From Nitrospira japonica (lineage in GTDB: Bacteria; Nitrospirota; Thermodesulfovibrionia; Thermodesulfovibrionales; SM23-35), in the NCBI GenBank assembly GCA_020725385.1, contig DYFC01000060.1, positions 1 to 64,000 of the forward strand: DNA of 64,000 nucleotides. Reading direction: 5' to 3'. Shown one piece after another: positions 1,771 to 62,125 of the stretch. The notes below the pieces were generated by a model. That model worked only from the letters and a program-made list of their open reading frames with translations. It searched no databases and was not told the DNA's origin. Numbering within the stretch: the stretch's first letter is position 1; every line of letters starts with the position of its first letter. The translations under genes were made by a program, and so were the position numbers.

Positions 1771-2595
1771 TTACCCTACAATTTTCAAGGAAATATCAGA
1801 AGATGGCGCAGAATGTGTAATTGCTCCAATAGAAATGAGATTAACTCCTGTTTCAGCAATGGACCTGATATTTTTTAATGTTACATTACCTGAAACTTCG
1901 AGTACAACTTTTTTATTAGCTATTCTTACTGCTTTTTTAATATCTTCCAATTTCATATTATCAAGCATAACAACATCTGCTCCTGCATCTATTGCTTCAA
2001 TAAGCTCCTGAACTGACCCAACTTCAACTTCTATTTTCTGAAGATGATTGCAGGATTTTTTTGCAAGCTTTATAGTCTTTTTTATTCCACCTGCTGCTTT
2101 TATGTGATTGTCCTTAATCAAAATTCCATCAAACAGACCGAATCTATGGTTAAAGCCCCCGCCTATTTTAACAGCGTATTTTTCCATGATTCTCAAGCAA
2201 GGAGAAGTTTTTCTTGTATCAACTACTTTTGCATTAGTACCCTGAATTTTCTTTACAAAAAGAGAAGTTAAGGTTGCTACGCCCGATAGCCTTTGGAGAA
2301 TATTGAGACATGTTCGTTCACCATATAGAATTGAACGTGTTCTACCTTGAAGTTCAGCAATTATATCACCTTTTTTTACATCAGCGCCATCATCTATAAA
2401 AGCTTTAAAAGCCAATTCAGGGTCAATAACACTGAAAACTTTTATTGCGAAAGGTATTCCTGCAAGTACGAATCTGGATTTTGCGATTATATGTGCGGTT
2501 GAAACACTATTTTCCGGAATTGTTAGAGATGTTGTAATATCTCCAAACCCTATGTCTTCCTGAAGTGCGTATTTTATTAAATCAGATGGTTCCAT
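1771..2595 (-). CDS. nadC: Nicotinate-nucleotide pyrophosphorylase (quinolinate phosphoribosyltransferase)
   Basis: EDIGFGDITT, DTRKT, HRFGL.D..LIKDNH, EVEV, MLDN motifs. Confidence 0.96.
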   Translation of the reverse strand: MEPSDLIKYALQEDIGFGDITTSLTIPENSVSTAHIIAKSRFVLAGIPFAIKVFSVIDPELAFKAFIDDGADVKKGDIIAELQGRTRSILYGERTCLNILQRLSGVATLTSLFVKKIQGTNAKVVDTRKTSPCLRIMEKYAVKIGGGFNHRFGLFDGILIKDNHIKAAGGIKKTIKLAKKSCNHLQKIEVEVGSVQELIEAIDAGADVVMLDNMKLEDIKKAVRIANKKVVLEVSGNVTLKNIRSIAETGVNLISIGAITHSAPSSDISLKIVG

Positions 2596-3084
2596 TTACT
2601 TTTTTCTCGTTAAGAGTGAGAAAAAGCCCCATAAACCTCCTAAGACAGATCCAAGAGCAAGCGCTGATTTCCAATCAAGCAAGGTAGTTATATTTCCCTC
2701 AACTTTATTACCTATTACCATAAAAGCAGAGGTATTTTCCGATTTTATTTCTTTTGCAGCAATTATTCCAACAGCTGACCTGTTCGATACAGCATTTTCT
2801 CTTGAAATAGTAACAGGGCTTAGGGAATAATTTATGGAAACTTTATCAGCAGCAGTAACTGTACTTATACTTTGGTTAAGATTAACCTCATTTCCTTTAA
2901 GTAAAGCTGTAGCTCCCTGAATTACCTCAACCTTTTCTCCATCAATACTAAGTGCGCCAACTTGCTGAAGTTCAATATGACTACCCTCAACAGAGCGTAT
3001 TGTACTTTGATTAACTTTAACAAATTCGCCTTCAAGAAATTCTATATCACTTTTTTCTATTTCTTTTCCTTTTTTAACTTTCAT
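2596..3084 (-). CDS. Hypothetical protein, beta-repeat-like N-terminus with C-terminal membrane anchor
   Basis: 162-aa ORF abutting valS and nadC; hydrophobic tail ALALGSVLGGLWGFFSLL. Confidence 0.65.
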   Translation of the reverse strand: MKVKKGKEIEKSDIEFLEGEFVKVNQSTIRSVEGSHIELQQVGALSIDGEKVEVIQGATALLKGNEVNLNQSISTVTAADKVSINYSLSPVTISRENAVSNRSAVGIIAAKEIKSENTSAFMVIGNKVEGNITTLLDWKSALALGSVLGGLWGFFSLLTRKK

Positions 3085-5762
3085 TATTTCCCCTCCGCTT
3101 CTTTTAAAAGTTTAATGCTCTCAAAAATTCTGTCCCTTATATGGACAAACTCGTTGTACCTTGCCTTTTCTTTTTCAACTATATCACGTGGCGCTTTTTT
3201 AATAAAATCGTCATTAAAAAGTTTTTTATTGAGAGAGGAGATGGAAGCCTCTACTTTTTTAATCTCTTTAGTAAGTCTTTCTATTTCAGAAGAAATATCA
3301 AGAATGCCTTTAAGCGGGACATAAATTTCCATTTTACTCTTTACAGAAGTAGCTGAACCCTCAGGTTTTTTTATGTCCCTGCCAATAGTAATTTTATCAC
3401 ATTTTGCGAGGCTCTTTATATAATTTAAATTTTCAATAATTATTTTTTCTACATCATCTGAATGAGTCTTAATAAAGACATTCAATTTTGCTGAAGGAGA
3501 TATATTAAGCTCTCCCCTGACCGTTCTTATACCCGTAATAGCATCTATAACAAAAGACATTTTTTCTTCAGCATTTAAATCTCTTTTTAGATTTTCAGGA
3601 AATGAAGAAATCATGATGCTTTCAACCGGTTCGCTTTCCATTAAATGAGGTATTTTCTGCCATATTTCTTCTGTAATAAAGGGCATGAAAGGATGAAGCA
3701 TTTTTAAAGATGCTTCAAGAGAATAAATAAGACACCATGAAGCTTCCTTGTAGTAAATATCATCCTGCAACTGCAATTTTGACATCTCGATATACCAGTC
3801 ACAGAATTCATGCCAGATGAATTGATAAATACTATTGGCAGCATCATTAAAACGATAATCTTCAAGAGATGCATTTACTTCATCTATTGTTAATGCAAGT
3901 CTGCTCAAAATCCATCTGCCGGCAAGACTTAAATTTTCAGGGCATGATAGTTTCTTATCTTGCTTTAAATTCATTAAAATAAATCTCGCTGCATTCCATA
4001 TCTTATTAACAAAATGCCTGTAGCCCTCGACTCTTTCTTCAGAAAATTTAATATCTCTTCCTTGAGCAGCAAAAGCTGCCAACGTAAATCTGAAAGCATC
4101 GGTGCCATATTTGTCCATCATTATCAGAGGATCAATTACATTACCTTTTGATTTAGACATTTTCTGGCCTTTTATATCCCTTACCAGCGCATGTATATAA
4201 ACATCCCTGAAAGGTACATCTTTCATAAATTTTAATCCCATCATTATCATTCTTGCTACCCAGAAGAAGATAATATCAAAACCTGTTACAAGAACACTTG
4301 TTGGATAATAGGTTTTAAGGTCTTCTGTGTTTTCAGGCCATCCAAAAGTTGAAAAAGGCCACAAAGCTGATGAAAACCAGGTGTCAAGAACATCGTCATC
4401 CTGTTTTATTTCTGATGAATTGCAATAAGGGCATTTTTCAGGCGTAACTCTTGATACAATTATCCCTTTTTTCTTCTGGCACTCATCATTTTGCATCTTA
4501 AGGCAATACCAGACAGGAATTCTATGGCCCCACCATATCTGACGTGATATACACCAATCTTTTATGTCTTCCATCCATGCAAAATATGTATTTTCCCATG
4601 AGGATGGAATAATTTTTATTCTGCCTTCTCTTACAGCCTTAATAGCTTCATCAGCAAGTGATTTAACGCTCACATACCATTGTGGTGTTGACAGAGGTTC
4701 GGTGATTGTCTTGCACCTATAACAATGACCGATGGCGTGTTTATGTTCTACCTGTTTTTCTATGAGTCCGAGTTCTTTCAAATCATTCAGAACTGCTTTT
4801 CTGCATTCATATCTGTCAAGACCTGCATATTTCTTACCAGCCAAAGCTGTCATTTTCCCATCATCACCTATTACAGTGATGAATTCAAGTTGTGGACTCT
4901 GTCTTTTTGCCATGGCTTCATCATTAAAATCATGCGCTGGTGTGACTTTAACAGCACCTGTTCCAAAGGAAGGATCGACTGCTGAATCTGATATAACTGG
5001 AATTTTTCTTCCTGTTAATGGTAGCTCAAGAACCAAACCAATATAATCTTTATACCTTTCATCTTCGGGATTTACAGCAACAGCAGTATCTCCAAGCATT
5101 GTTTCAGGTCTTGTGGTTGCAACAATTATATACTTATCAGACTTCCCTGCTATGGGGTATTTTATATAAGTTAATCTTCCATCAATTTCTTCATGTTCAA
5201 CTTCAAGGTCTGAAAGAGCTGTATGGCAGCGAGGACACCAGTTTATCAAACGATTATCACGATATATAAGCCCTTCCTCGTATAATCTTACAAAAACTTC
5301 TCTTACAGCAATGGAAAGACCTTCATCAAGTGTGAATCTTTCTCTTGTCCAGTCACATGATGCCCCAAGTCTTTTTAATTGGTGAATTATTGTCCCGCCT
5401 GACTCAGCTTTCCATTTCCATACTCTTTTTATAAAAGCTTCCCTACCGAGAGAATGTCTATCAAGTCCTTCGGCTGCCAGCTGTTTTTCAACAACATTTT
5501 GTGTCGCTATACCAGCATGGTCTGTTCCGGGGAGCCATAGTACTTTATATCCTTTCATTCTTTTCCATCTTGAAAGAATATCCTGTAAAACAGTATTTAG
5601 CGCATGCCCCATGTGCAGAGAGCCAGTAACATTTGGAGGGGGGATAACCAAAGAATATGGAATGCCGGTATTTTTAGGGTCTGGAGTAAAAAATCCCTTT
5701 AAAACCCAAAAATTATACCAGCTTTCTTCTAAGCCGTGTGGATTAAAACCTTTTTCTAAAAT
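3084..5762 (-). CDS. valS: Valine--tRNA ligase
   Basis: PPPNVTGSLHMGH, DWCISRQIWWGH, KMSKS, C-terminal coiled coil. Conserved N-terminus LEKGFNPHGLEESWYNFW lies upstream of the track start (5651); start placed tentatively at ATT 5762. Confidence 0.95.
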   Translation of the reverse strand: MLEKGFNPHGLEESWYNFWVLKGFFTPDPKNTGIPYSLVIPPPNVTGSLHMGHALNTVLQDILSRWKRMKGYKVLWLPGTDHAGIATQNVVEKQLAAEGLDRHSLGREAFIKRVWKWKAESGGTIIHQLKRLGASCDWTRERFTLDEGLSIAVREVFVRLYEEGLIYRDNRLINWCPRCHTALSDLEVEHEEIDGRLTYIKYPIAGKSDKYIIVATTRPETMLGDTAVAVNPEDERYKDYIGLVLELPLTGRKIPVISDSAVDPSFGTGAVKVTPAHDFNDEAMAKRQSPQLEFITVIGDDGKMTALAGKKYAGLDRYECRKAVLNDLKELGLIEKQVEHKHAIGHCYRCKTITEPLSTPQWYVSVKSLADEAIKAVREGRIKIIPSSWENTYFAWMEDIKDWCISRQIWWGHRIPVWYCLKMQNDECQKKKGIIVSRVTPEKCPYCNSSEIKQDDDVLDTWFSSALWPFSTFGWPENTEDLKTYYPTSVLVTGFDIIFFWVARMIMMGLKFMKDVPFRDVYIHALVRDIKGQKMSKSKGNVIDPLIMMDKYGTDAFRFTLAAFAAQGRDIKFSEERVEGYRHFVNKIWNAARFILMNLKQDKKLSCPENLSLAGRWILSRLALTIDEVNASLEDYRFNDAANSIYQFIWHEFCDWYIEMSKLQLQDDIYYKEASWCLIYSLEASLKMLHPFMPFITEEIWQKIPHLMESEPVESIMISSFPENLKRDLNAEEKMSFVIDAITGIRTVRGELNISPSAKLNVFIKTHSDDVEKIIIENLNYIKSLAKCDKITIGRDIKKPEGSATSVKSKMEIYVPLKGILDISSEIERLTKEIKKVEASISSLNKKLFNDDFIKKAPRDIVEKEKARYNEFVHIRDRIFESIKLLKEAEGK

Positions 5763-6821: not shown

Positions 6822-7646
6822 TTAAATTGATTTGATACTTATGTCATATAGTTCTTTTTTGCTTATACCAAACATCTCGGCAATTTTTTTAGCAGCCTCT
6901 TTTCTACCAAAACCCTTCTTCATCAAGCTATGTAATTCTATGAGAGCTTCATCTATATTTTTGTTTTGTACAGGACTAAGCCCTTCTATAACAAGAACAT
7001 ATTCTCCTGCTATTTTTGTTCCCATAATATTATCTAATATATCCGGAAAATTTCCTCTTATTACCTCTTCATGTAATTTTGTAATTTCTTTAACAATTGC
7101 GGCCTTTCTGCCATGAAAAATTTCCGATATTTCTTTTAGTGTTTCTATAATTCTATGAGGAGCTTCATATATTACAACAGTTCTTTGTTCCCGGGATAAT
7201 TCATTTAATTTTTTCATTTTTTGGCTTTTCTTTGAAGGTAGAAATCCGATGAAAGTAAATTCATCCGTTGGTAGTCCTGAAATTGATAATGCAGCAATGG
7301 CAGCTGTAACTCCGGGAACTGATACAATCTGAATGTTTTCTTCAATTGCCTTATTTATCAGAAAAGAGCCAGGATCTGATATGCCCGGTGTTCCTGCATC
7401 GGAGATAAGTGCTATTGAATTTCCTTCTTTGAGTTTATTAATGATTTCTGCTGCTCTTGATTTTTCTTTCTCTTTCCAGTAGCTGATTAAAGGCTTTTTT
7501 ATACCGTAATGATTTAGTAATTTTAAAGAGTGACGGGTGTCTTCTACTGCTATAATATCTACTGCTTTTAAAATTCTTAAAGCGCGTAAGGTAATATCTT
7601 CAAGATTACCGATAGGTGTTGAAACAATGTATAGTGTACCGCTCAT
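6822..7646 (-). CDS. rsmI: 16S rRNA (cytidine1402-2'-O)-methyltransferase
   Basis: GTLYIVSTPIGNLEDIT, EDTRHS, SDAGTPGISDPG, YEAPHR, KEITKLHEE. Confidence 0.96.
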   Translation of the reverse strand: MSGTLYIVSTPIGNLEDITLRALRILKAVDIIAVEDTRHSLKLLNHYGIKKPLISYWKEKEKSRAAEIINKLKEGNSIALISDAGTPGISDPGSFLINKAIEENIQIVSVPGVTAAIAALSISGLPTDEFTFIGFLPSKKSQKMKKLNELSREQRTVVIYEAPHRIIETLKEISEIFHGRKAAIVKEITKLHEEVIRGNFPDILDNIMGTKIAGEYVLVIEGLSPVQNKNIDEALIELHSLMKKGFGRKEAAKKIAEMFGISKKELYDISIKSI

Positions 7647-45108: not shown

Positions 45109-46302
45109 TTACTTTTTACGATTATTTATGACAATAATGAATATGATAAAAAACCCGGCAGATAAACTTGCTGTTATCGAGCCAAAATAAAAGGTTGCTG
45201 AGGGTGAAATCTTATCCCATAACCACCCCCCTATAAAACTTGCCGGAAACATGGCTAAACCGATTGCAGTATTATAAACTCCAAATGCTGTTGCCTTAAA
45301 ATCAGGCGGGATAATTGTTGCAAGAAAAGCTTTCTGTATTCCTTCTGTAAGTCCCATAAAAAGCCCGTAAAAACCGAATAATAACCATATGGTACTTGTG
45401 TCTTTAGCCACTGCAAAACCATAATAGAGCATAGCAAAGAGAATGAATCCGATTAGTATCACTCTTTTTCTTCCGAACCTGTCTGCTGCTATTCCTGCTG
45501 GAATTGCAGATAAAGAATATATGAGATTGAACATAAGATATACAACAGGAATCATGAGGGCTGAAATCCCTATTTGTTGGGCTCTGAGAATAAGGAATAC
45601 GTCACTTGAATTTCCCAAAGCAAACAAGGTTGCTATTGCCACAAAAAATTTAAACTTCCAGTCAAAATGTTTAAGAGTCAGTTTCGGCCTTTCTGAGGGC
45701 ATTTTAATAGCTTGCTTCTTTTCCTTGATAAATAAGATTATCAACAATACAGCTATTGCTCCGGGAATCATAGAGAGCCAGAATACCCATCTATAATTGT
45801 TTGAAAAAATACCCAGCAAAAAAAATGCAAGAGCTGGTCCAATTACAGCACCCATTGTATCCATCGAACGGTGAAAACCGAATGCTCTACCAAGATGTGT
45901 TTTTTCAGTTGACTCTGCAATAATAGCATCGCGTGGTGCCGTGCGTACCCCTTTGCCGAATCTGTCCATAAAACGAGAGCCCATTACATGGTGCCAACCT
46001 GTAGCAAGAGCAACAATAGGTCTGCTCAAAGTAGATATTCCGTATCCTGCAGCCATTAACCACTTCCGATTACCTATTCTGTCTGAAAACCATCCTGAAA
46101 ATACTTTCAATAAACTCGCGGTAGATTCTGCTATGCCTTCTATTAAACCTATAACAGATTTATTTACACCAAGCACATTAGCAAGAAATAATGGCACAAG
46201 TGGATATATCATCTCAGAACTGACATCCATAAAAAAACTGACGAGCCCTGCAATAAATACATTCTGTCCAAAACCAAAAAATTTTCTATTATCCTTTGTC
46301 AC
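45109..46302 (-). CDS. MFS transporter
   Basis: SFFMDVSSE, SDRIGNRK, DRFGKGVRTAPRDA, GRAFGFHRSMD. Confidence 0.92.
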   Translation of the reverse strand: MTKDNRKFFGFGQNVFIAGLVSFFMDVSSEMIYPLVPLFLANVLGVNKSVIGLIEGIAESTASLLKVFSGWFSDRIGNRKWLMAAGYGISTLSRPIVALATGWHHVMGSRFMDRFGKGVRTAPRDAIIAESTEKTHLGRAFGFHRSMDTMGAVIGPALAFFLLGIFSNNYRWVFWLSMIPGAIAVLLIILFIKEKKQAIKMPSERPKLTLKHFDWKFKFFVAIATLFALGNSSDVFLILRAQQIGISALMIPVVYLMFNLIYSLSAIPAGIAADRFGRKRVILIGFILFAMLYYGFAVAKDTSTIWLLFGFYGLFMGLTEGIQKAFLATIIPPDFKATAFGVYNTAIGLAMFPASFIGGWLWDKISPSATFYFGSITASLSAGFFIIFIIVINNRKK

Positions 46303-46322: not shown

Positions 46323-46856
46323 CTATATATTTTTTTTCTGGCTCTTTTCATAAACCTTTTTTGAAAAATCATCAAACATCTTTTCACATTCTTTTATTTT
46401 CTCTATAGCCTGTTTTCTCAACGGAGCTTTTACTAAATCTCTTTTTTCAATTTTTTTCAACCAATGTTTTAACTTATCAAGTTCTTCTTCATTTTCTTCA
46501 ACCTCAGCGAAAATAAAATTCTTCCTTTCAATCTCAAACTTTATTTCTTTAAAAAAGTCTTCGCATTTTTCTATCACTTCCTGATATTCTTCATTTCTTG
46601 AGTCCATGAATACTTTAATGATTCTTTCTTCCTGTTTTTTATCTACTGCCTTACCTTCAACCAGCATCCCTTCACCCTTATATCCTTCGATTGTTTCGAC
46701 AAGTTTTTTTAGTTCATTTATATTTTCATTAGAATAAGGTATAACCCAGACTGTCTGATAATTTACAGCACCGAGCTTTTTTAATTGACGCCAGACGTAC
46801 ACCCTGGCTTTAGATGGCTCGGCCGGTAGACTATATGAAAAAAATAGCCATTTCAT
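46323..46856 (-). CDS. ChrB N-terminal-domain protein (putative DNA-binding regulator)
   Basis: MKWLFFSYSLPAEPSKARVYVWRQLKKLGAV..VWVIP..RNEEYQE; true start ATG 46856. Confidence 0.85.
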   Translation of the reverse strand: MKWLFFSYSLPAEPSKARVYVWRQLKKLGAVNYQTVWVIPYSNENINELKKLVETIEGYKGEGMLVEGKAVDKKQEERIIKVFMDSRNEEYQEVIEKCEDFFKEIKFEIERKNFIFAEVEENEEELDKLKHWLKKIEKRDLVKAPLRKQAIEKIKECEKMFDDFSKKVYEKSQKKNI

Positions 46857-46875
46857 GTAACTATTGTTACATGAA
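46852..46875. promoter_or_regulatory. Palindromic operator overlapping -10 region and start codon of the chrB-like gene
   Basis: TTCATGTAAC-TATT-GTTACATGAA; TTGACT -35 upstream on the minus strand; identical core at 50204-50222. Confidence 0.8.
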
Positions 46876-46888
46876 TATCTCTTCGAAG

Positions 46889-48100
46889 TCAATGCAGTAT
46901 TGACCTGGTCTTTTTGACCATAAGGAGTAAGGGCACGGAGGCCAATTGAGCTGCTATAGAAAATGCGATCAGAAGTGGAATAGAAAAATCGTATAGGAAC
47001 CCTATCAATGCACTCCCCAGAAACCAAAACACACCATAACCTGTATTGAAGATGCCATAAGCAGAAGCACGCTTGTCGCGAGGTGCCATTCCAGCGACAG
47101 CTGCCCGCATGACTGATTCGTGGGCACCCATTCCTATGCCCCAAAGGGCCATGCCGGCAAGGCTCAGATAGAAGCCTCCCAGGAATACCAAAGGTGCAAA
47201 GAATGAGGATAATAGAACTGCTATAATAACTATCGGTATGCCTTTTCGATCGAAAATTCGACCGAATACCAGAGCAGCAATAGCTGCAGTTCCCATTGAG
47301 ACAGAGTAAAAAATAGGGATCCAGTTTCCGGGAACTACCAATGTCTTTTGAAAATGGTAGGCGATAACAGGAAAATCCGCATACCCTGCGGCAATTAAGG
47401 CCATTGCTGTAAGATAAATCCAATAGACTCTGGGCAGTCCTTTTGTCTCGACTTCCGGCTTGGTCGCCTCCAGGTCACGGGGATGTGGATAAAGGAAACG
47501 CGCAAAGATAAGAACACCTATTGTAAGGAGTGCTGGTATCAACAAAAATGCAAACCCCATCTGATAAGTCCCCTTGAAATAAAGCACAGCCGCAACTATC
47601 AGGGGACCAAGCATTGCACCGGTTGTGTCCATGGCTTCGTGCAATCCGAATCCCCAGCCCCTTCCTATTTCATGAGTGGCATGCGAGAGCATCGCGTCGC
47701 GAACCGGGTTACGTATTGCTTTTCCAGCCCTTTCTGCAATGATGAAAAAAGCTGCCACTTCCCAGCGGCCTGCCAGTGCCATGGCAGGCACAGCCAGCAT
47801 ATTGATTAAGTAGCCAATGATAGTAATAGTCCAGTATTTCGCAGTCTTGTCGGTGACATAACCGGAGACAAGACGAAGCGCATATCCGACTAACTCCCCA
47901 AACCCTGAAACTATTCCCACTATGGTGGCATTTGCTCCAAGGAAGGCGAGGAACGGGCCGTAAATGCTTCGTGCTCCTTCGTGTGTCATATCTGCAAAGA
48001 GGCTAACAATACCAAGCAAAACTATGAACAGCACGGTAGATCGCTTGGTTGTTACTATAGGATGTATTCTTTCGTCCGAAACAACGTTTTGTTTATCCAT
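46889..48100 (-). CDS. MFS transporter
   Basis: SLFADMTHEG, ERAGKAIRNPVRDA, GWGFGLHEAMD, FDRKG; same family as 45109-46302. Confidence 0.92.
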   Translation of the reverse strand: MDKQNVVSDERIHPIVTTKRSTVLFIVLLGIVSLFADMTHEGARSIYGPFLAFLGANATIVGIVSGFGELVGYALRLVSGYVTDKTAKYWTITIIGYLINMLAVPAMALAGRWEVAAFFIIAERAGKAIRNPVRDAMLSHATHEIGRGWGFGLHEAMDTTGAMLGPLIVAAVLYFKGTYQMGFAFLLIPALLTIGVLIFARFLYPHPRDLEATKPEVETKGLPRVYWIYLTAMALIAAGYADFPVIAYHFQKTLVVPGNWIPIFYSVSMGTAAIAALVFGRIFDRKGIPIVIIAVLLSSFFAPLVFLGGFYLSLAGMALWGIGMGAHESVMRAAVAGMAPRDKRASAYGIFNTGYGVFWFLGSALIGFLYDFSIPLLIAFSIAAQLASVPLLLMVKKTRSILH

Positions 48101-48248
48101 AATGCACTCCTTTTCATCAGCTTCTTAAAAATAATGTACATATAAAACACTCCACTGTATTACGTCGAACCCGGCTCTGACGGCGAGCCAACATAGCGAT
48201 CCGGATAACAGGGGAGAGTTGGGGCGATAATCTCATTGATGTTACATC

Positions 48249-49097
48249 CTATTTCACTACAAGCACAGGTTTTTCGCTGTATTCAACAACCCTTTGCGAG
48301 ACACTGCCCCAGAAAATAGCCTCTGTAAAACCTTTTCCATGAGAGCCCATTACAATCAATGAAACATCTTCTTCAGTGGCAATTTTGTTAATCTCAGCAT
48401 AAGGCTTGCCCTTGATAAGCTGCACCGATACCTTAAAACCTTGTGACTGGAACTCCTGCTCCAAGTTTGCTAATTTTTCTTTTATGCCAAGATCGAAATC
48501 TGTCTCCAGAACATGAACAACGATAATTTCAGAGGCTCCTACTTTATGAAGTGTAGGGATATATTGTTTAGCGCGCTCTGCACTCGAAGACCAATCAGTG
48601 GGATAGAGTATCTTTCTGAACATATTGGTACAATATTGTTCGGTGGTCTCACCTGCTGTTTCTTTTAGAACATGGTATTTTGCCACCAGAACAGGAACCG
48701 CTGATTTTCTTATAATGCGGTCTGTTGTGGAGCCGACAAAAAGTTCTCCAAGAATATCCCTCTTCTGCCTGCCTGCAACAATGAGGGATACATCTTCTTC
48801 ATTTGCTGCCTTCAATATTTCAGAAACCAGTGAGCCCTCGACAATTTTTGTCTTGACAGCAACACCTTCGGTTTCCAGATATTCCGCAAATCTATTAATT
48901 TCTTTCTGAGCTTTATCGCGGATTCGATCGAAATCAATCGGAAACCCTGAATCCCTTATTATAAAAAGAGCTTCTGTTTCTATAACATTCATAAGAATGA
49001 CCTCTTCCAGACCAGCTGCTTTCAAACACGTCAAATTTTTCAGTATCGGCAATGCAAATTCTTCAAATTTTGTTGGATAGAGAATTTTCTTAAACAT
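48249..49097 (-). CDS. Tandem-domain universal stress protein
   Basis: Two MF(K/R)KILYPT repeats; GSTTDRIIRKSAVPVLV and MGSHG..GSVSQRVV..KPVLVVK. Confidence 0.93.
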   Translation of the reverse strand: MFKKILYPTKFEEFALPILKNLTCLKAAGLEEVILMNVIETEALFIIRDSGFPIDFDRIRDKAQKEINRFAEYLETEGVAVKTKIVEGSLVSEILKAANEEDVSLIVAGRQKRDILGELFVGSTTDRIIRKSAVPVLVAKYHVLKETAGETTEQYCTNMFRKILYPTDWSSSAERAKQYIPTLHKVGASEIIVVHVLETDFDLGIKEKLANLEQEFQSQGFKVSVQLIKGKPYAEINKIATEEDVSLIVMGSHGKGFTEAIFWGSVSQRVVEYSEKPVLVVK

Positions 49098-49121
49098 TTG
49101 TCTTCCTCCTCTTTGAAAATA

Positions 49122-50084
49122 TTATTTGACTCCCAGTAAAGGCGACAGCACTGAATATAAGACAAAAGCTACGACTGCTCCTATGAGGGGAGTTAGAAAC
49201 CACGATACAACGATCTCCTTTATAGTTTTCATGTTAATTGCATTAATGCCCCGCGATAATCCGGCGCCTGCTATTCCGCCTATCATTGCCTGATTCATAG
49301 AAGTAGGGTAGCCAAGAGAAGCAGCAATATGAGCAGTAATTCCCTGTGCCAACTGGGCACCAACAGCACTATTAATATCAAGTGAAACAATATGAAGGCC
49401 TACTTTTTCTAAAAGAGGGCGTCCCCATGTAAGAGCACCGATCGCCATGACAATGCCTCCGATAAAACCGGCCAGCATCTTTGACGGAATTGCACCTGTA
49501 CCAAAGAAGACACCTACTGCATTCCCTGTGTTGTTACAACCAAGAGTATAGGCAGCATAGCAGCATACGAGAAGGAGAAGGTATTTTTTAGCTTTATCAA
49601 ATTTCGTTAATGCTGATATATCCATAACCTTGGTCAGGATAAAACCAAGAATCGCCCCTACAATAGGTGTGCCTACCCATGTGATGGCCAGAGCAAGAAT
49701 AGTCGTTTCCCATTGGACTTGAGCTTTCATCCCTATTGCAGCGCCTACAACTGAAAAGATGGCCAACTGAGAGGTCGAAACCGGAAGTTTAAGCCAGGTA
49801 TTTGCAGCAGTCACAAGTGCTGCTGTGAGCATCATAATCATTGCCCCAAATATTGTCATATACTTTGCTTCAATAACTCCTGTACCGACTGTTTTGACAA
49901 CATTATGGCTTTCCAGAGTAGCACCCAGAAGTACAAAAATTGCGATCAGGATTGTTGCATTCCTTGGTTTGATAAGTTTCGCACCAAAAGCCGTTCCCAT
50001 TACCGCCCCTGTGTAATGTGATCCGATAGTCCATCCGAAAAAAAGCCCTGACAAAACCATGCCGATTAAATAAACCGTATCCAT
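49122..50084 (-). CDS. PiT (inorganic phosphate/anion transporter) family permease
   Basis: Inverted repeats with LPVSTSQ and YPTSMNQ, GCNNTGNAVG, SWFLTP; start ATG 50084 after GGGAGG. Confidence 0.85.
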   Translation of the reverse strand: MDTVYLIGMVLSGLFFGWTIGSHYTGAVMGTAFGAKLIKPRNATILIAIFVLLGATLESHNVVKTVGTGVIEAKYMTIFGAMIMMLTAALVTAANTWLKLPVSTSQLAIFSVVGAAIGMKAQVQWETTILALAITWVGTPIVGAILGFILTKVMDISALTKFDKAKKYLLLLVCCYAAYTLGCNNTGNAVGVFFGTGAIPSKMLAGFIGGIVMAIGALTWGRPLLEKVGLHIVSLDINSAVGAQLAQGITAHIAASLGYPTSMNQAMIGGIAGAGLSRGINAINMKTIKEIVVSWFLTPLIGAVVAFVLYSVLSPLLGVK

Positions 50085-50089
50085 TCTTT

Positions 50090-50206
50090 TCACCTCCCGC
50101 ATTTCTTTAGCTTCATTGATATGAAGCGAATTAAAATCAATCCAATATTCCAGCCTAATATAAATCCTGAAACAATAATTCCGATGAACAATATCATTTT
50201 TATCAT
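50090..50206 (-). CDS. Putative 38-aa leaderless membrane peptide upstream of the PiT gene
   Basis: MIKMILFIGIIVSGFILGWNIGLILIRFISMKLKKCGR; ATG inside the operator; stop overlaps PiT RBS. Confidence 0.5.
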   Translation of the reverse strand: MIKMILFIGIIVSGFILGWNIGLILIRFISMKLKKCGR

Positions 50207-50222
50207 GTAACTATTGTTACAT
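50204..50222. promoter_or_regulatory. Second copy of the ATGTAAC-N4-GTTACAT operator in a sigma70 promoter
   Basis: CATGTAACTATTGTTACAT; minus strand reads TTGACA-N17-TAACAAT-AGTTAC-ATG. Confidence 0.8.
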
Positions 50223-50684
50223 TTTATAATAATTTTTGTCAAGCTTTAAAATAGTTATTTATGTTACATTAAAAATTATTTAGATTTTTACAAGCTCCTC
50301 TTATTTGGTTAATAAAAGAAATGGGAATTTTTTATAACAGGAAACTGGTTAAAATATTCGTTTTATTTTTTTCAACTTATTGATATATACTATTTAAACT
50401 TAAAAAGGAGAAAGAATATATGGATAGTTCTGACGGATGTTGTAGTCAATGTTTTAATCAAAGAATAATTAATAATAAAAAAGAAGAAATGAAACTGTAT
50501 AGATTAAATTATGCAGTCCTGAATTTGAATCGTTCCAGCCAATAATATTTTTATAAACGATTCTCCTCTGGATTGCATAGATTAGATTAAAACCAGAGGT
50601 GAATCATGAAAAATCTTTTATGTGACTTTCCAATTAGTGATTCTATTAAATTTCATAGTATCCATTCAATAATAGGAGGCCATA

Positions 50685-53348
50685 GTGTTTAAATTCTTGT
50701 ACAACTTATTCATTCCTTCATGGATACGTGATATGGCGAGTGCTCCCCATGCCCGTACAGATGATGAAAAACGACTTTTTGAAGTCTGCTCGGTTCCGGT
50801 AGAGAAAGCTTTACAGATTATGGACAGCAATATCCGGGGATTAAGCTCGAAAGAAGCTGAGAGACTTTTGGAAAAATATGGGCGCAATGAAATAACACAT
50901 ACCAGACGTCTTAATTTTTTTCAAGATATACTCCGACGTTTTAAAAGCCCTCTGGTAATTCAACTTATAATTATTGCAATCGTGTCTTTAGTAATTGGAG
51001 AGTTGAAATCAACGATTATTGTTTTCTCTATGATTCTGCTCAGTGTCGGGTTGTCTTATGCATTGGACAGGCGTTCAAATAATGCGGTTGAAGCCCTTGG
51101 CAAAAGGGTACAATCACGCTCAATTGTTCTTAGAGATGGCAAAGAGATAGAGTTGCCCTTGGCTGAACTAGTGCCCGGCGACATTATTCTTCTTCAAGCA
51201 GGTTCAATTATACCTGCAGATCTAAGAATAGTTTCAGCTAAAGATTTTTTTGTAAGTCAGGCAACACTTACAGGTGAATCAATTCCTGTCGAGAAAAATG
51301 CTGAAATTTCAGAAAATAGCGGAAAAGAATTATTTGAGTTAAGTAACGCTTGTTTCCAGGGTAGCAGTGTAAGCAGCGGTACAGCACGCGGGCTAGTTGT
51401 AAATACGGGTAGCCACACATATTTTGGTGCAATTGCTGAAAGGCTTTCTGCAACAGCAATCCAAACCAGTTTTGATCTCGGTGTTCGCTCATTCACATGG
51501 CTTATGATCAAATTCATGATAATAATGGTTTCTTTCTGTTTTGTGATTGTCGGGCTTACAAAGGGTAACTGGCTTGAAGCACTTCTGTTCGGGTTAGCTG
51601 TTGCTGTAGGGCTAACACCTGAAATGCTGCCGATGATAGTTACTGTGAATCTTGCAAAAGGTGCAATTTCTATGTCAAAGAAAAAAGTAATTGTCAAAAG
51701 ACTTTCTGCTATACAAAATTTTGGAGCAATTGACATACTCTGCATGGATAAGACCGGAACATTAACTCAGGATAAGGTTATCATGGAAAAACATGTAGAC
51801 GTTACAGGAGAAGACAGTGAAAATGTGCTCCGTTATGCATATCTAAACAGTTATTATCAGACAGGGCTAAGAAATCTGCTTGACAGGGCAGTGCTCGAAC
51901 ATAGGGAATTCGATGTTGAAGGTGCGTGCCGGCTGGTAGATGAACTACCATTTGATTTTCAGCGCAGGCGTATGTCTGTTGTAGTAGAATTTGAAGGAGA
52001 TCATGTCCTGATTTGCAAGGGTGCGGTAGAAGAGATTTATTCTTGCTGTAGTTACTACCAGTTGGATGATGAAATTTATCCTCTTATAGATATGATCAGA
52101 GATGATCTTTTTGATGAAGTTGCACGTTTGAACAATGAAGGATACCGAACCCTTGCTGTTGCTTACAGAGAGTTTCCACGCGAAAAGATACGTTTTTCTA
52201 CAAAAGATGAATCATCTTTAATACTTCTTGGTTATTTAGCTTTTCTCGATCCACCAAAGGATTCTTCTTCCAGAGCCATAAAACTTTTAAAGGAAAACGG
52301 GGTTGGGGTTAAAATTCTGACAGGTGATAATGCTCTTGTTACCGGTAAAATATGCCGCCAGGTTGGGTTTGAGGTCAATCACATTGTTACCGGAGAAGAA
52401 TTGGAACGTATGTCCCGGAAGGAATTTGAAAAGTCTGTTGCAGAAGCGAATGTAATGGTTAAACTATCACCATTACAAAAAGAAAGAGTAATAGAATCAT
52501 TACGCATAGATAGCAAGCATGTAGTAGGCTATATTGGTGATGGTATTAATGATGCACCGGCTTTGCGTGCTGCTGATGTGGGGATTTCTGTCGATTCTGC
52601 TGTTGATGTGGCAAAGGAATCCGCTGATATAGTACTTTTAGAAAAAAGCCTATTAGTCCTCGAAGATGGAATTATTGAAGGCAGAAAGGTTTTCTCTAAT
52701 ATTATAAAATATATCCGCATGGGAGCAAGTTCCAATTTCGGCAATATGTTTAGTGTGCTCGGAGCAAGTTATCTTCTTCCTTTTCTGCCAATGCAGCCTG
52801 TACAGATTCTTTTGAATAACCTGTTATATGATTTTTCACAAACAGGCATCCCTACTGATAATGTAGATGAGGAACAGATTGCAAAACCACGAAAATGGGA
52901 TATCGGAAACATAAAATGGTTTATGATCGTAATCGGACCGATAAGCTCAATTTTTGATTATGCAACATTTGCTTTAATGTGGTTTATTTTCAATACCCGG
53001 GCATTTCTTGAAGTAGCAACCGGTACAGCCGGACGGGAGATATATGCACAACTTTTTCAGACAGGGTGGTTTGTGGAATCTCTGCTTACACAAACACTAA
53101 TTGTTCATATTATTCGAACAAAACGCATTCCTTTTATTCAGAGCCGTGCTTCCATGACTATGACACTAACCACGCTTGCTGTTATGGCAATCGGGGCATG
53201 GTTGCCTTATTCTCCATTTGCATCAACATTCGGATTTGTGCCTCTACCGCTTAGCTATTGGGGTTGGATAGCCGTGTTTCTTTTTATGTATATTATTATT
53301 ACACATAAGATCAAAAAGTGGTTTTTCAAAAAATTTGGAGGTGAATAA
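50685..53348 (+). CDS. mgtA: Magnesium-translocating P-type ATPase
   Basis: TGES, AVAVGLTPEMLPMIV, DKTGTLT, LPFDFQRRRMSV, GDGINDA, SSNFGNMFS, FQTGWFVESL. Confidence 0.95.
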   Translation: MFKFLYNLFIPSWIRDMASAPHARTDDEKRLFEVCSVPVEKALQIMDSNIRGLSSKEAERLLEKYGRNEITHTRRLNFFQDILRRFKSPLVIQLIIIAIVSLVIGELKSTIIVFSMILLSVGLSYALDRRSNNAVEALGKRVQSRSIVLRDGKEIELPLAELVPGDIILLQAGSIIPADLRIVSAKDFFVSQATLTGESIPVEKNAEISENSGKELFELSNACFQGSSVSSGTARGLVVNTGSHTYFGAIAERLSATAIQTSFDLGVRSFTWLMIKFMIIMVSFCFVIVGLTKGNWLEALLFGLAVAVGLTPEMLPMIVTVNLAKGAISMSKKKVIVKRLSAIQNFGAIDILCMDKTGTLTQDKVIMEKHVDVTGEDSENVLRYAYLNSYYQTGLRNLLDRAVLEHREFDVEGACRLVDELPFDFQRRRMSVVVEFEGDHVLICKGAVEEIYSCCSYYQLDDEIYPLIDMIRDDLFDEVARLNNEGYRTLAVAYREFPREKIRFSTKDESSLILLGYLAFLDPPKDSSSRAIKLLKENGVGVKILTGDNALVTGKICRQVGFEVNHIVTGEELERMSRKEFEKSVAEANVMVKLSPLQKERVIESLRIDSKHVVGYIGDGINDAPALRAADVGISVDSAVDVAKESADIVLLEKSLLVLEDGIIEGRKVFSNIIKYIRMGASSNFGNMFSVLGASYLLPFLPMQPVQILLNNLLYDFSQTGIPTDNVDEEQIAKPRKWDIGNIKWFMIVIGPISSIFDYATFALMWFIFNTRAFLEVATGTAGREIYAQLFQTGWFVESLLTQTLIVHIIRTKRIPFIQSRASMTMTLTTLAVMAIGAWLPYSPFASTFGFVPLPLSYWGWIAVFLFMYIIITHKIKKWFFKKFGGE

Positions 53349-61916: not shown

Positions 61917-62060
61917 GGACCGACTTCTCTGACCGTTACTTTGCCAGACGGTCTTTTATACTGAGCGTTATAGGCAGCCACCAATGAGCGTTCCATAACC
62001 TTCCCAAGTTTGTTTCTGATGGGATCGTCGGGCTTACCGACTCCCGCATTTTCTCAAACT

Positions 62061-62113
62061 ATAGGAGTTATCAGCCCCAGGAGGGCGGCGCTTCAAGGCG
62101 AACTCCATCGCCT
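62061..62113 (-). ncRNA. Fluoride riboswitch (crcB motif)
   Basis: Minus strand AGGCGATGGAGTTCGCC-TTGAAGCGCC-GCCCTCCTGGGGC-TGATAACTCCTAT: P1, P2 and pseudoknot GGAGTT/AACTCC match the consensus. Confidence 0.92.
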
Positions 62114-62125
62114 ACGATAAAAAGA

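Follow-up and report, generated by a model that had tools for sequence, protein, structure and literature searches.

A shared palindrome at two promoters as the predicted operator of a ChrB_N-only protein in a Nitrospirota transporter cluster

Results

We analyzed a 64,000-nucleotide stretch of contig DYFC01000060.1 (the window) from the Nitrospira japonica assembly GCA_020725385.1. Its minus strand carries a gene cluster in the order peptide open reading frame (ORF), PiT permease, tandem universal stress protein (USP), a transporter of the major facilitator superfamily (MFS) named MFS-B, chrB_N and a further MFS transporter, MFS-A. A palindrome occurs in identical form at two promoters of this cluster. 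A first-pass annotation had taken the two copies for operators of the ChrB-like protein, one heading the chrB-like gene plus an MFS gene and the other a peptide-PiT-USP-MFS unit, and the gene order agrees with that division. The elements on which this interpretation turns are the following.

46855-46872, no strand assigned: O(chrB), predicted operator, an 18-bp ATGTAAC-N4-GTTACAT palindrome that reaches from the extended -10 through the -10 to the predicted +1/ATG of chrB_N
46863-46892, minus strand: P(chrB), predicted promoter, with -35 TTGACT at 46892-46887, an 18-nt spacer, TG at 46871-46870 and -10 AACAAT at 46868-46863
46323-46856, minus strand: chrB_N, predicted repressor of 177 amino acids with a ChrB_N domain only, no Shine-Dalgarno sequence and its ATG within the palindrome
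50205-50222, no strand assigned: O1(pit), predicted operator, the same 18-bp palindrome, which covers the PiT operon promoter from its extended -10 and -10 to the +1, found in the homologous position in 16 loci
50213-50242, minus strand: P(pit), predicted promoter, with TTGACA at 50242-50237, 18 nt, TG and AACAAT at 50218-50213
50253-50268, no strand assigned: O2(pit), predicted distal operator, reading TGTAAC-ATAA-ATAACT on the minus strand (left half perfect, right half 3/6), a third box that the first-pass annotation did not contain

The 19-mer CATGTAACTATTGTTACAT is present without mismatches on the plus strand at 46854-46872 and 50204-50222, exactly where it had been reported. Searching the window on both strands with up to three mismatches returned four matches, which are these two sites on each strand (0.04 expected by chance; 0/100 shuffled sequences gave four). 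In the whole assembly (2,463,613 bases in 71 contigs, 96.6% complete, 34.7% GC), these are the only two exact copies of the 18-bp form ATGTAAC-N4-GTTACAT. All remaining matches carry two mismatches, and the total of 13 sites per strand compares with 6 for a reversed control. Scored with a position weight matrix made from 76 boxes of other genomes, the two window sites reach 25.5 and 25.1 bits, the next-best genomic site reaches 15.9 bits, and the weaker two-mismatch sites fall between 12 and 16 bits. This gap speaks against a wider regulon in the genome, which contains a single ChrB_N gene. Sequence identity between the copies stops at the limits of the 19-mer, and they are therefore not a duplicated segment. 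At copy 1 the palindrome is longer than previously noted, being perfect over 24 bp (46852-46875). That the two copies arose by chance or belong to a dispersed repeat element has the AT-richness of the genome in its favor and nothing else. We regard it as negligible in view of the shuffles, the restriction to two copies in this genome, the abrupt end of identity and the retention of the box across phyla described below.

On the minus strand both copies read AACAAT, then AGTTAC, then ATG (46856-46854 at copy 1 and 50206-50204 at copy 2). As the first-pass annotation had it, the palindrome thus covers the -10 region and ends in a start codon; its left half-site provides the extended -10. The promoter elements named there, TTGAC(T/A)-N17-TAACAAT, are present, but their register is off by one base, the arrangement being TTGAC(T/A), 18 nt and AACAAT with the TG extension. 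The -35 of P(chrB) overlaps the TGA stop codon of the upstream MFS-B gene. Counting from the -10, the A of the ATG comes seventh at both copies, and a C precedes it; transcription starts are usually found at such a distance and in such a context. A consensus promoter scan of the region gave 16 promoter-like matches, the TG extension being found in these two only. P(pit) is the best match of the region (10/12 positions with TG), and its -35 is kept in related loci. Neither palindrome ATG is preceded by a Shine-Dalgarno sequence, in contrast to five other starts (PiT, USP, both MFS genes and the next gene downstream), which have GGAGG-like boxes 5-9 nt upstream. Both copies hence show a leaderless-type layout, in which the -10 ends 6-8 nt before an ATG that lacks a Shine-Dalgarno sequence.

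The center of O2(pit) lies 47 bp from that of O1(pit), immediately upstream of the P(pit) -35. Fourteen related loci have the same architecture, with two boxes, separated by 44-46 bp, on either side of a TTGACA -35 before the PiT gene. The distal box also overlaps a weak plus-strand promoter-like match (TTGTCA-18-TATGTT). We assign it to P(pit), because related loci retain it where the divergent gene is missing.

We scanned homologue loci for the box, taking one genome per species (77 loci, of which 76 entered the count over -200 to +10 of the ChrB_N start; L058/L059 and L079/L080 are duplicate pairs, and genomes that are related do not count as independent). With at most one mismatch allowed, the box is found in 34/76 loci compared with 6/1498 control windows, and the motif predicted to precede homologues is thus indeed there. 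It abuts the ATG in 13/76 loci, from Nitrospirota and Desulfobacterota, and likewise in L096 and L097. When 70 nt upstream are compared, these 13 loci have a TTGA(C/A) -35 in 13/13 and a T at -7 in 12/13 cases, with divergent spacers between them. Firmicutes and other loci show one or two boxes around the promoter, followed by a leader with GGAGG; tandem boxes, frequently 16-35 bp apart in Firmicutes and Actinobacteria, are located around or upstream of promoters. Many loci with no box at the ChrB_N gene have one at the operon head. N-only ChrB genes on plasmids, located beside mcr-5.1, MFS or PAP2 genes, have the box upstream in 4/4 examined cases. The sole constant neighbor of the box is the ChrB gene, whatever the cargo (MFS, PiT, Na/Ca exchanger, mcr-5.1, PAP2, chrA or HD). 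Within the order of the window, ChrB_N is present in 10/41 genomes and the N-only type in just two besides the window's own, a patchy distribution. Deviating arrangements were seen in one Actinomycetota group (L070, L072, L075 and L077, at ~7532-7550), where a box, TGTAACAGTCGTTAGA, is found immediately downstream and not upstream of the ChrB_N gene, and in the alphaproteobacterial loci L061 and L065, where the half-sites are direct and not inverted (TGTAAC-N4-GTAACA).

Full-length ChrB genes carry the box too. In the window's order all 7 loci with full-length ChrB have an upstream box at two or fewer mismatches, among them a chrB-chrA pair (L104) and a chrB-HD pair (L098). In the window's phylum, the ~440 nt upstream of full-length chrB contain a box with no more than one mismatch in 20/23 loci, and 0/7 loci that encode ChrB_C only have one. 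The latter ORFs (L105, L120, L122-L124, L130 and L132) are 154-264 amino acids long, and none was detected in the window's genome. From these comparisons, the box appears to be a ChrB-family operator that is widespread, not universal, and not peculiar to the window or to the N-only protein.

The 13 loci with an abutting ATG bear on how chrB_N is expressed. The operators could be correctly placed and the promoters not be leaderless, with transcription beginning farther upstream (by read-through from P(pit) in the case of chrB_N) and both ATGs used by Shine-Dalgarno-independent internal initiation, or with the peptide left untranslated. We consider this unlikely, though it has to be reckoned with. 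An AT-rich genome (34.7% GC) favors unstructured starts, only 32 nt separate MFS-B from chrB_N with no canonical terminator for minus-strand transcripts between them, and the peptide ORF is kept in L012 alone (3648-3761; 59% amino acid identity), where it starts 5 nt downstream of the box and its differing codons are 7 synonymous and 15 non-synonymous. Against this, 13 loci with dissimilar spacers have conserved the -35 as well as the TG and the T at -7, each at a constant distance from the ATG, and all other genes of the cluster have strong Shine-Dalgarno boxes. Furthermore, on a read-through RNA from P(pit) the palindrome would fold into a 10-bp hairpin that holds the chrB_N ATG (centroid -11.4 kcal/mol, z -2.5), and a hairpin-bound ATG without a Shine-Dalgarno sequence suggests that the repressor would mainly be made from its own promoter. 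Of the leaderless starts proposed in the first-pass annotation, that of chrB_N is upheld by its geometry, by the GTTAC/ATG junction and by the TTGA(C/A) -35 in 13/13 loci; that of the peptide fares less well, given the shifted ORF in L012. We conclude that chrB_N is probably translated from a leaderless mRNA with a predicted start at the A of the ATG.

The half-sites vary together with the protein. In L079, L080, L081, L085 and L086, which are Actinobacterial, Acidobacterial or Dormibacterota-like, the box is TGCAAC-N4-GTTGCA, a symmetric change in both halves. Helix 1 of the corresponding proteins reads PST...RLHR or LKR; in the others it is PSK/R...LKK. Direct readout of the half-site by helix 1 would predict such covariation, in a group that is phylogenetically narrow.

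These comparisons also bear on the idea that the palindrome works mainly in the RNA, terminating or attenuating transcription or trapping the start codon, or binds a protein encoded elsewhere, with ChrB_N as a bystander. The 24-bp palindrome is indeed flagged as terminator-like on the plus strand, its RNA has the fold noted above, and ChrB_N has no helix-turn-helix. However, copy 2 is placed around or upstream of a promoter, as are the boxes seen in Firmicutes and Actinobacteria, and none of them should fall within a likely transcript. The U-run on the minus strand starts 7-8 nt past the stem, ChrB genes are the only constant neighbor and the half-sites covary with helix-1 residues. We therefore think it very improbable that ChrB_N is a bystander.

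The window protein matches ChrB_N (PF20229) with E 9.9e-40 and 136.5 bits (cut-off 23) over profile positions 1-157/159, and hence belongs to this family. It had been described as an N-terminal domain only, with no chrA present, and both statements hold: its 177 amino acids contain ChrB_N alone, and PF02417 (chrA) has no match in the 96.6%-complete genome (control positive in 8/14 genomes). ChrB_C (PF09828) is likewise without a match in the genome, a weak negative given that the control genomes were silent too. A homologue search gave 365 clusters at E<=1e-3 among 491 candidates, the best 120 of them 66-99% identical, and an exhaustive search gave 1526 cluster representatives at E<=1e-3, of which 435 reach E<=1e-10. 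Nearly all of the best 150 of these 1526 are 160-250 amino acids long, which indicates a large family of N-only ChrB proteins as opposed to truncated ones. None of 1356 candidates was a longer (fused) homologue, which is weak evidence. An apparent fusion of ChrB_N to a P-type ATPase in L083 was dismissed, as the 5' part of the frame has no ChrB_N match and the tblastn match to ChrB_N lies in another frame, with the ATPase domains downstream of it. The N-terminus MKWLFFSYSLP is conserved across 32 aligned homologues; as nearly all homologues share it, the start is fixed at the palindrome ATG.

An AlphaFold (AF2) model (predicted local distance difference test (pLDDT) score 90) has a beta-alpha-beta-beta-alpha-beta domain at residues 3-69, followed by three long helices. 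Foldseek places PaaX (PDB 8a39) on top over the whole length (E 6.9e-3, probability 0.98, 177 columns), followed by many Cas2 proteins that match the first domain only (E ~1e-2, 67-91 aligned columns). Arg-18 and Arg-23, in an A-R-V-x-x-W-R motif on helix 1, are invariant in the 32 homologues and retained in distant ones. An acidic stretch, F-x-F-A-E-V-E-E-N-E, is invariant in every aligned homologue including distant ones, and two cysteines, Cys-98 and Cys-157, are present in each of the 32 close homologues and mostly, not always, kept in distant ones. A predicted complex of two ChrB_N copies scored 0.20 and 0.23 (mark 0.42) and serves as evidence neither way. A sequence search of the PDB with the family profile gave an unrelated phosphodiesterase as best match (E 0.012). 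For residues 70-177, a wide VIA-align search returned generic three-helix-bundle matches (Z <=11.4, below the ~13 advised for helical bundles), and those to CorA/MRS2 and SPX (Z 9.3-9.5) were not taken as meaningful.

The genes that would be controlled from the two promoters are the following.

45109-46302, minus strand: MFS-A transporter, 397 amino acids, second gene of the chrB_N operon
50090-50206, minus strand: peptide ORF of 38 codons, hydrophobic, starting at the palindrome ATG and ending with a TGA stop inside the PiT Shine-Dalgarno sequence
49122-50084, minus strand: PiT/PHO4 permease, 320 amino acids from the ATG behind GGGAGGTGA, Pfam PF01384 (E 1.9e-47)
48249-49097, minus strand: tandem USP, 282 amino acids, Pfam PF00582 in two stretches
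46889-48100, minus strand: MFS-B transporter, 403 amino acids, last gene of the PiT operon, Pfam PF07690

An MFS gene adjoins ChrB_N in 13/15 loci, in 7 more loci and in L091 and L092, and an MFS transporter of the MFS-A type is the most frequent partner of N-only ChrB in other phyla. MFS-B occupies the same position in L012, L018, L021, L036, L045 and L048. A PiT-MFS-chrB_N cluster is also present in the cultivable Thermodesulfovibrio sp. N1 (L043). Overall the cargo varies: MFS genes occur in most loci, PiT in 10/15 close loci, and tandem USP, Na/Ca exchanger, TauE, PAP2 and ABC exporters elsewhere. Recurrent neighbors of N-only ChrB and MFS genes in L092 (a Rhizobium plasmid), L039 and L090 are PAP2-family phosphatases, a DedA/PAP2 fusion, an Exo_endo_phos protein and DUF1232, a set that hints at envelope or lipid-phosphate functions in some regulons. 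NCBIfam has no name for ChrB_N and gave no match above threshold for either MFS protein or for PiT.

The more likely PiT start is the one at 50084 behind GGGAGGTGA, which goes beyond the first-pass annotation. The protein has the PHO4 domain and lacks both signature aspartates of GANDVANA, its motifs being GSHYTGAV and GCNNTGNA. Phosphate-type PiT proteins are, in the available text of PMC5840216, characterized by GANDVANA signatures with a conserved Asp in both halves, and the window PiT does not carry this PitA-like signature. Its best NCBIfam match is the CysP sulfate permease, under the cut-off of that model. In L045 (4623-5624) the PiT gene is split into two ORFs of 110 and 221 amino acids, because of either a frameshift or faulty assembly. 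Both in the window genome and in L012, the peptide ORF has its stop codon within the PiT Shine-Dalgarno sequence, and the coding status of this ORF is uncertain. The 38-residue peptide is similar to membrane helix 1 of the PiT protein encoded behind it, as if part of the 5' end of the PiT gene had been duplicated and had then diverged.

Because chrA and a detectable ChrB_C are absent, the mode of chromate sensing that is described for ChrB is out of the question here, and the first-pass suggestion of another anion as inducer is speculative. The missing signature aspartates of PiT and its sub-threshold CysP match make sulfur or another oxyanion a reasonable guess for the inducer; the acidic stretch and the cysteines of ChrB_N could equally indicate a cation or redox signal.

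A Cys-rich ORF of 41 codons (50420-50545, plus strand), which is divergent from P(pit) and has a strong Shine-Dalgarno sequence, precedes an MgtA-type Mg2+ P-type ATPase gene (50685-53348, plus strand; TIGR01524, 1097 bits), and the two may form a leader-peptide arrangement. A fluoride riboswitch is located at 62055-62121 on the minus strand (RF01734, 48.9 bits, E 1.6e-10), ~12 kb from the cluster; we see no link to the ChrB regulon.

Discussion

We put at roughly 80% the probability that the two palindromes are operators ("ChrB boxes") of the ChrB_N-only protein encoded at 46856-46323, which would be the autoregulated repressor of a two-promoter regulon and be made from a leaderless mRNA. The operator assignment is favored because the box is unique in the genome to these promoters, is conserved upstream of homologues, has half-sites that covary with the protein and has ChrB as its constant neighbor. 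The operator and regulon proposed in the first-pass annotation are in this way borne out by comparative evidence, with the box accompanying ChrB_N genes across phyla.

The sequence layout, the uniqueness in the genome and the conservation and covariation across homologues lead us to infer binding, repression, a transcription start and a signal as follows. A ChrB_N dimer would bind each TGTAAC-N4-GTTACA box. At P(chrB), where the box covers the TG of the extended -10, the -10 and the +1, the protein would repress its own chrB_N-MFS operon, and the proximal box at P(pit), covering the extended -10 to the +1, would act likewise. The half-degenerate distal box would probably add cooperative binding, and both P(pit) boxes together would shut off the peptide-PiT-2xUSP-MFS unit until some signal releases the repressor. 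The regulon would comprise just these two transcription units.

It is improbable that ChrB_N binds the box as an activator, or that it represses one promoter and activates the other via the distal box. The distal box does lie just upstream of the -35, a position of class I/II activators, the AACAAT -10 is imperfect, and the authors of the O. tritici (Ochrobactrum tritici) work discuss ChrB remaining on DNA with chromate (in the available text of PMC3817168). On the other hand, the proximal boxes overlap the -10 and the +1, where a bound protein blocks RNA polymerase. A near-consensus -35 with an extended -10 should make an activator unneeded. In addition, the ChrB of O. tritici represses, reporter expression being high without chrB (as reported in the accessible part of PMC3817168).

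Several observations count against the repressor-operator interpretation. The ChrB_N model has no recognizable helix-turn-helix, so that the DNA-reading surface is conjectural, and the equivalence of Arg-18 and Arg-23 to those of O. tritici ChrB is by numbering and spacing. Full-length chrBA loci on plasmids of Sphingobium, Synechococcus and Sphingopyxis have no box with three or fewer mismatches within 300 nt upstream (3/3). The available text of PMC3817168 reports that the N-terminal half of O. tritici ChrB alone did not regulate the reporter, and proposes another, imperfect repeat as the site, although ChrB still bound the mutated repeat. The start of the peptide at the box is not kept, as it is shifted in L012 and other loci have no peptide. 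Finally, the 16 promoter-like matches in the region are no excess over the 17.7 expected by chance, and the scan by itself is weak proof of the promoters.

More generally, the ChrB family may be a widespread class of transcription factors that reads an 18-bp box with a Cas2-like ferredoxin domain and not a helix-turn-helix, with helix 1 (A-R-V-x-x-W-R) and the next beta-hairpin as the reading head. N-only members would then be repressors in their own right that respond to signals and control transporter and envelope genes, not remnants of chromate regulators, leaderless in this lineage and with the start codon within the operator. We give this general picture even odds.

ChrB is cited and engineered as a chromate sensor, and that it is an autoregulator was already known. 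In the openly accessible literature that our search reached, the box was not found in print. Relative to that literature, the precise 7+4+7 box with its conservation and covariation is new, as are the N-only subfamily with a transporter regulon and the leaderless start embedded in an operator. The ChrB operator has no precise definition there; the sole experimental paper found gives an imperfect repeat, mutation of which did not abolish binding (available text of PMC3817168). A box that spans phyla, together with its covarying variant, offers a testable DNA target, a basis for predicting ChrB regulons from sequence and a handle on DNA reading by a protein without a helix-turn-helix. The annotation "ChrB" on short proteins beside MFS, PiT or other cargo should not be equated with chromate resistance. 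A start codon within the operator of a leaderless gene would be a compact autoregulatory design in Nitrospirota and Desulfobacterota, two phyla in which leaderless genes are, to our knowledge, little studied, a point on which we made no search.

The closest experimental reference is the ChrB of the O. tritici transposon TnOtChr (chrBACF), which, as reported in the accessible part of PMC3817168, is mainly a dimer, binds and represses its own promoter, and becomes constitutive, with loss of repression, upon an R18A or R23A substitution. The description of ChrB as an autoregulatory DNA-binding repressor thus has its published basis in this system. Both systems share the ChrB_N domain and a site that overlaps the -10 just before the gene's own ATG. 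They differ in the site, which in O. tritici is an imperfect 12-bp repeat with a 9-bp linker and in the window a 7+4+7 box; in the published text available, the repeat holds one GTAAC core and does not fit the box. They differ also in the sensor, since ChrB_C of the O. tritici protein holds the chromate-sensing residues R180, R187 and H229 (same source) and the window protein has no ChrB_C, and in the cargo, which is chrBACF there and PiT, USP and MFS here, with no chrA match in the genome. Neither ChrB_C nor a linked chrA, the hallmarks of a canonical chromate regulator, is thus found in the window protein or its locus.

Full-length ChrB proteins of the window's phylum have the same TGTAAC-N4-GTTACA box, located between or after the TTGACA -35. 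Unlike the window protein, they are ~330-350 amino acids long with a C-terminal sensor domain, have a helical part of only distant similarity, match ChrB_N with E ~1e-10 to 1e-12 (1e-39 for the window) and are encoded by genes with leaders and not by leaderless ones. In an E. coli plasmid (L089), a ChrB_N-only gene (2433-3028) stands directly before mcr-5.1 in a Tn3-family transposon. Its 180-residue product is 39.6% identical to the window protein and the box TGAAAC-GGCC-GTTACG lies upstream; unlike in the window, the gene has a leader, and the cargo includes a phosphoethanolamine transferase. According to the part of PMC6857192 available, an MFS gene lies beyond mcr-5 in the Tn3-family transposon, and the accessible text of this paper and of PMC13373230 treats the mcr-5-adjacent ChrB domain protein as a chromate-related gene only and describes no operator.

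PaaX, the repressor of phenylacetate catabolism, is the best structural match to the whole model, and the "Cas2-like" Pfam domain PaaX_M matches the window protein under its cut-off (E 0.004, 17.6 bits, cut-off 24). PaaX, with 305 amino acids, binds DNA by an N-terminal winged helix; ChrB_N of the window begins directly with the Cas2-like domain (first model strand at residues 3-9). With the sub-cut-off PaaX_M match alone and no N-terminal winged helix in the model, the protein is not a member of the PaaX family. Nor is it a Cas2: the likeness is one of fold, the protein has an extra helical domain of 100 residues, and its gene is located among transporter genes. For the leaderless arrangement, precedents are the cI mRNA of phage lambda transcribed from PRM and the tetR mRNA of Tn1721, both leaderless repressor mRNAs with an operator over their own promoter. 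The proteins are unrelated to ChrB_N, and in the window the start codon itself forms part of the operator palindrome.

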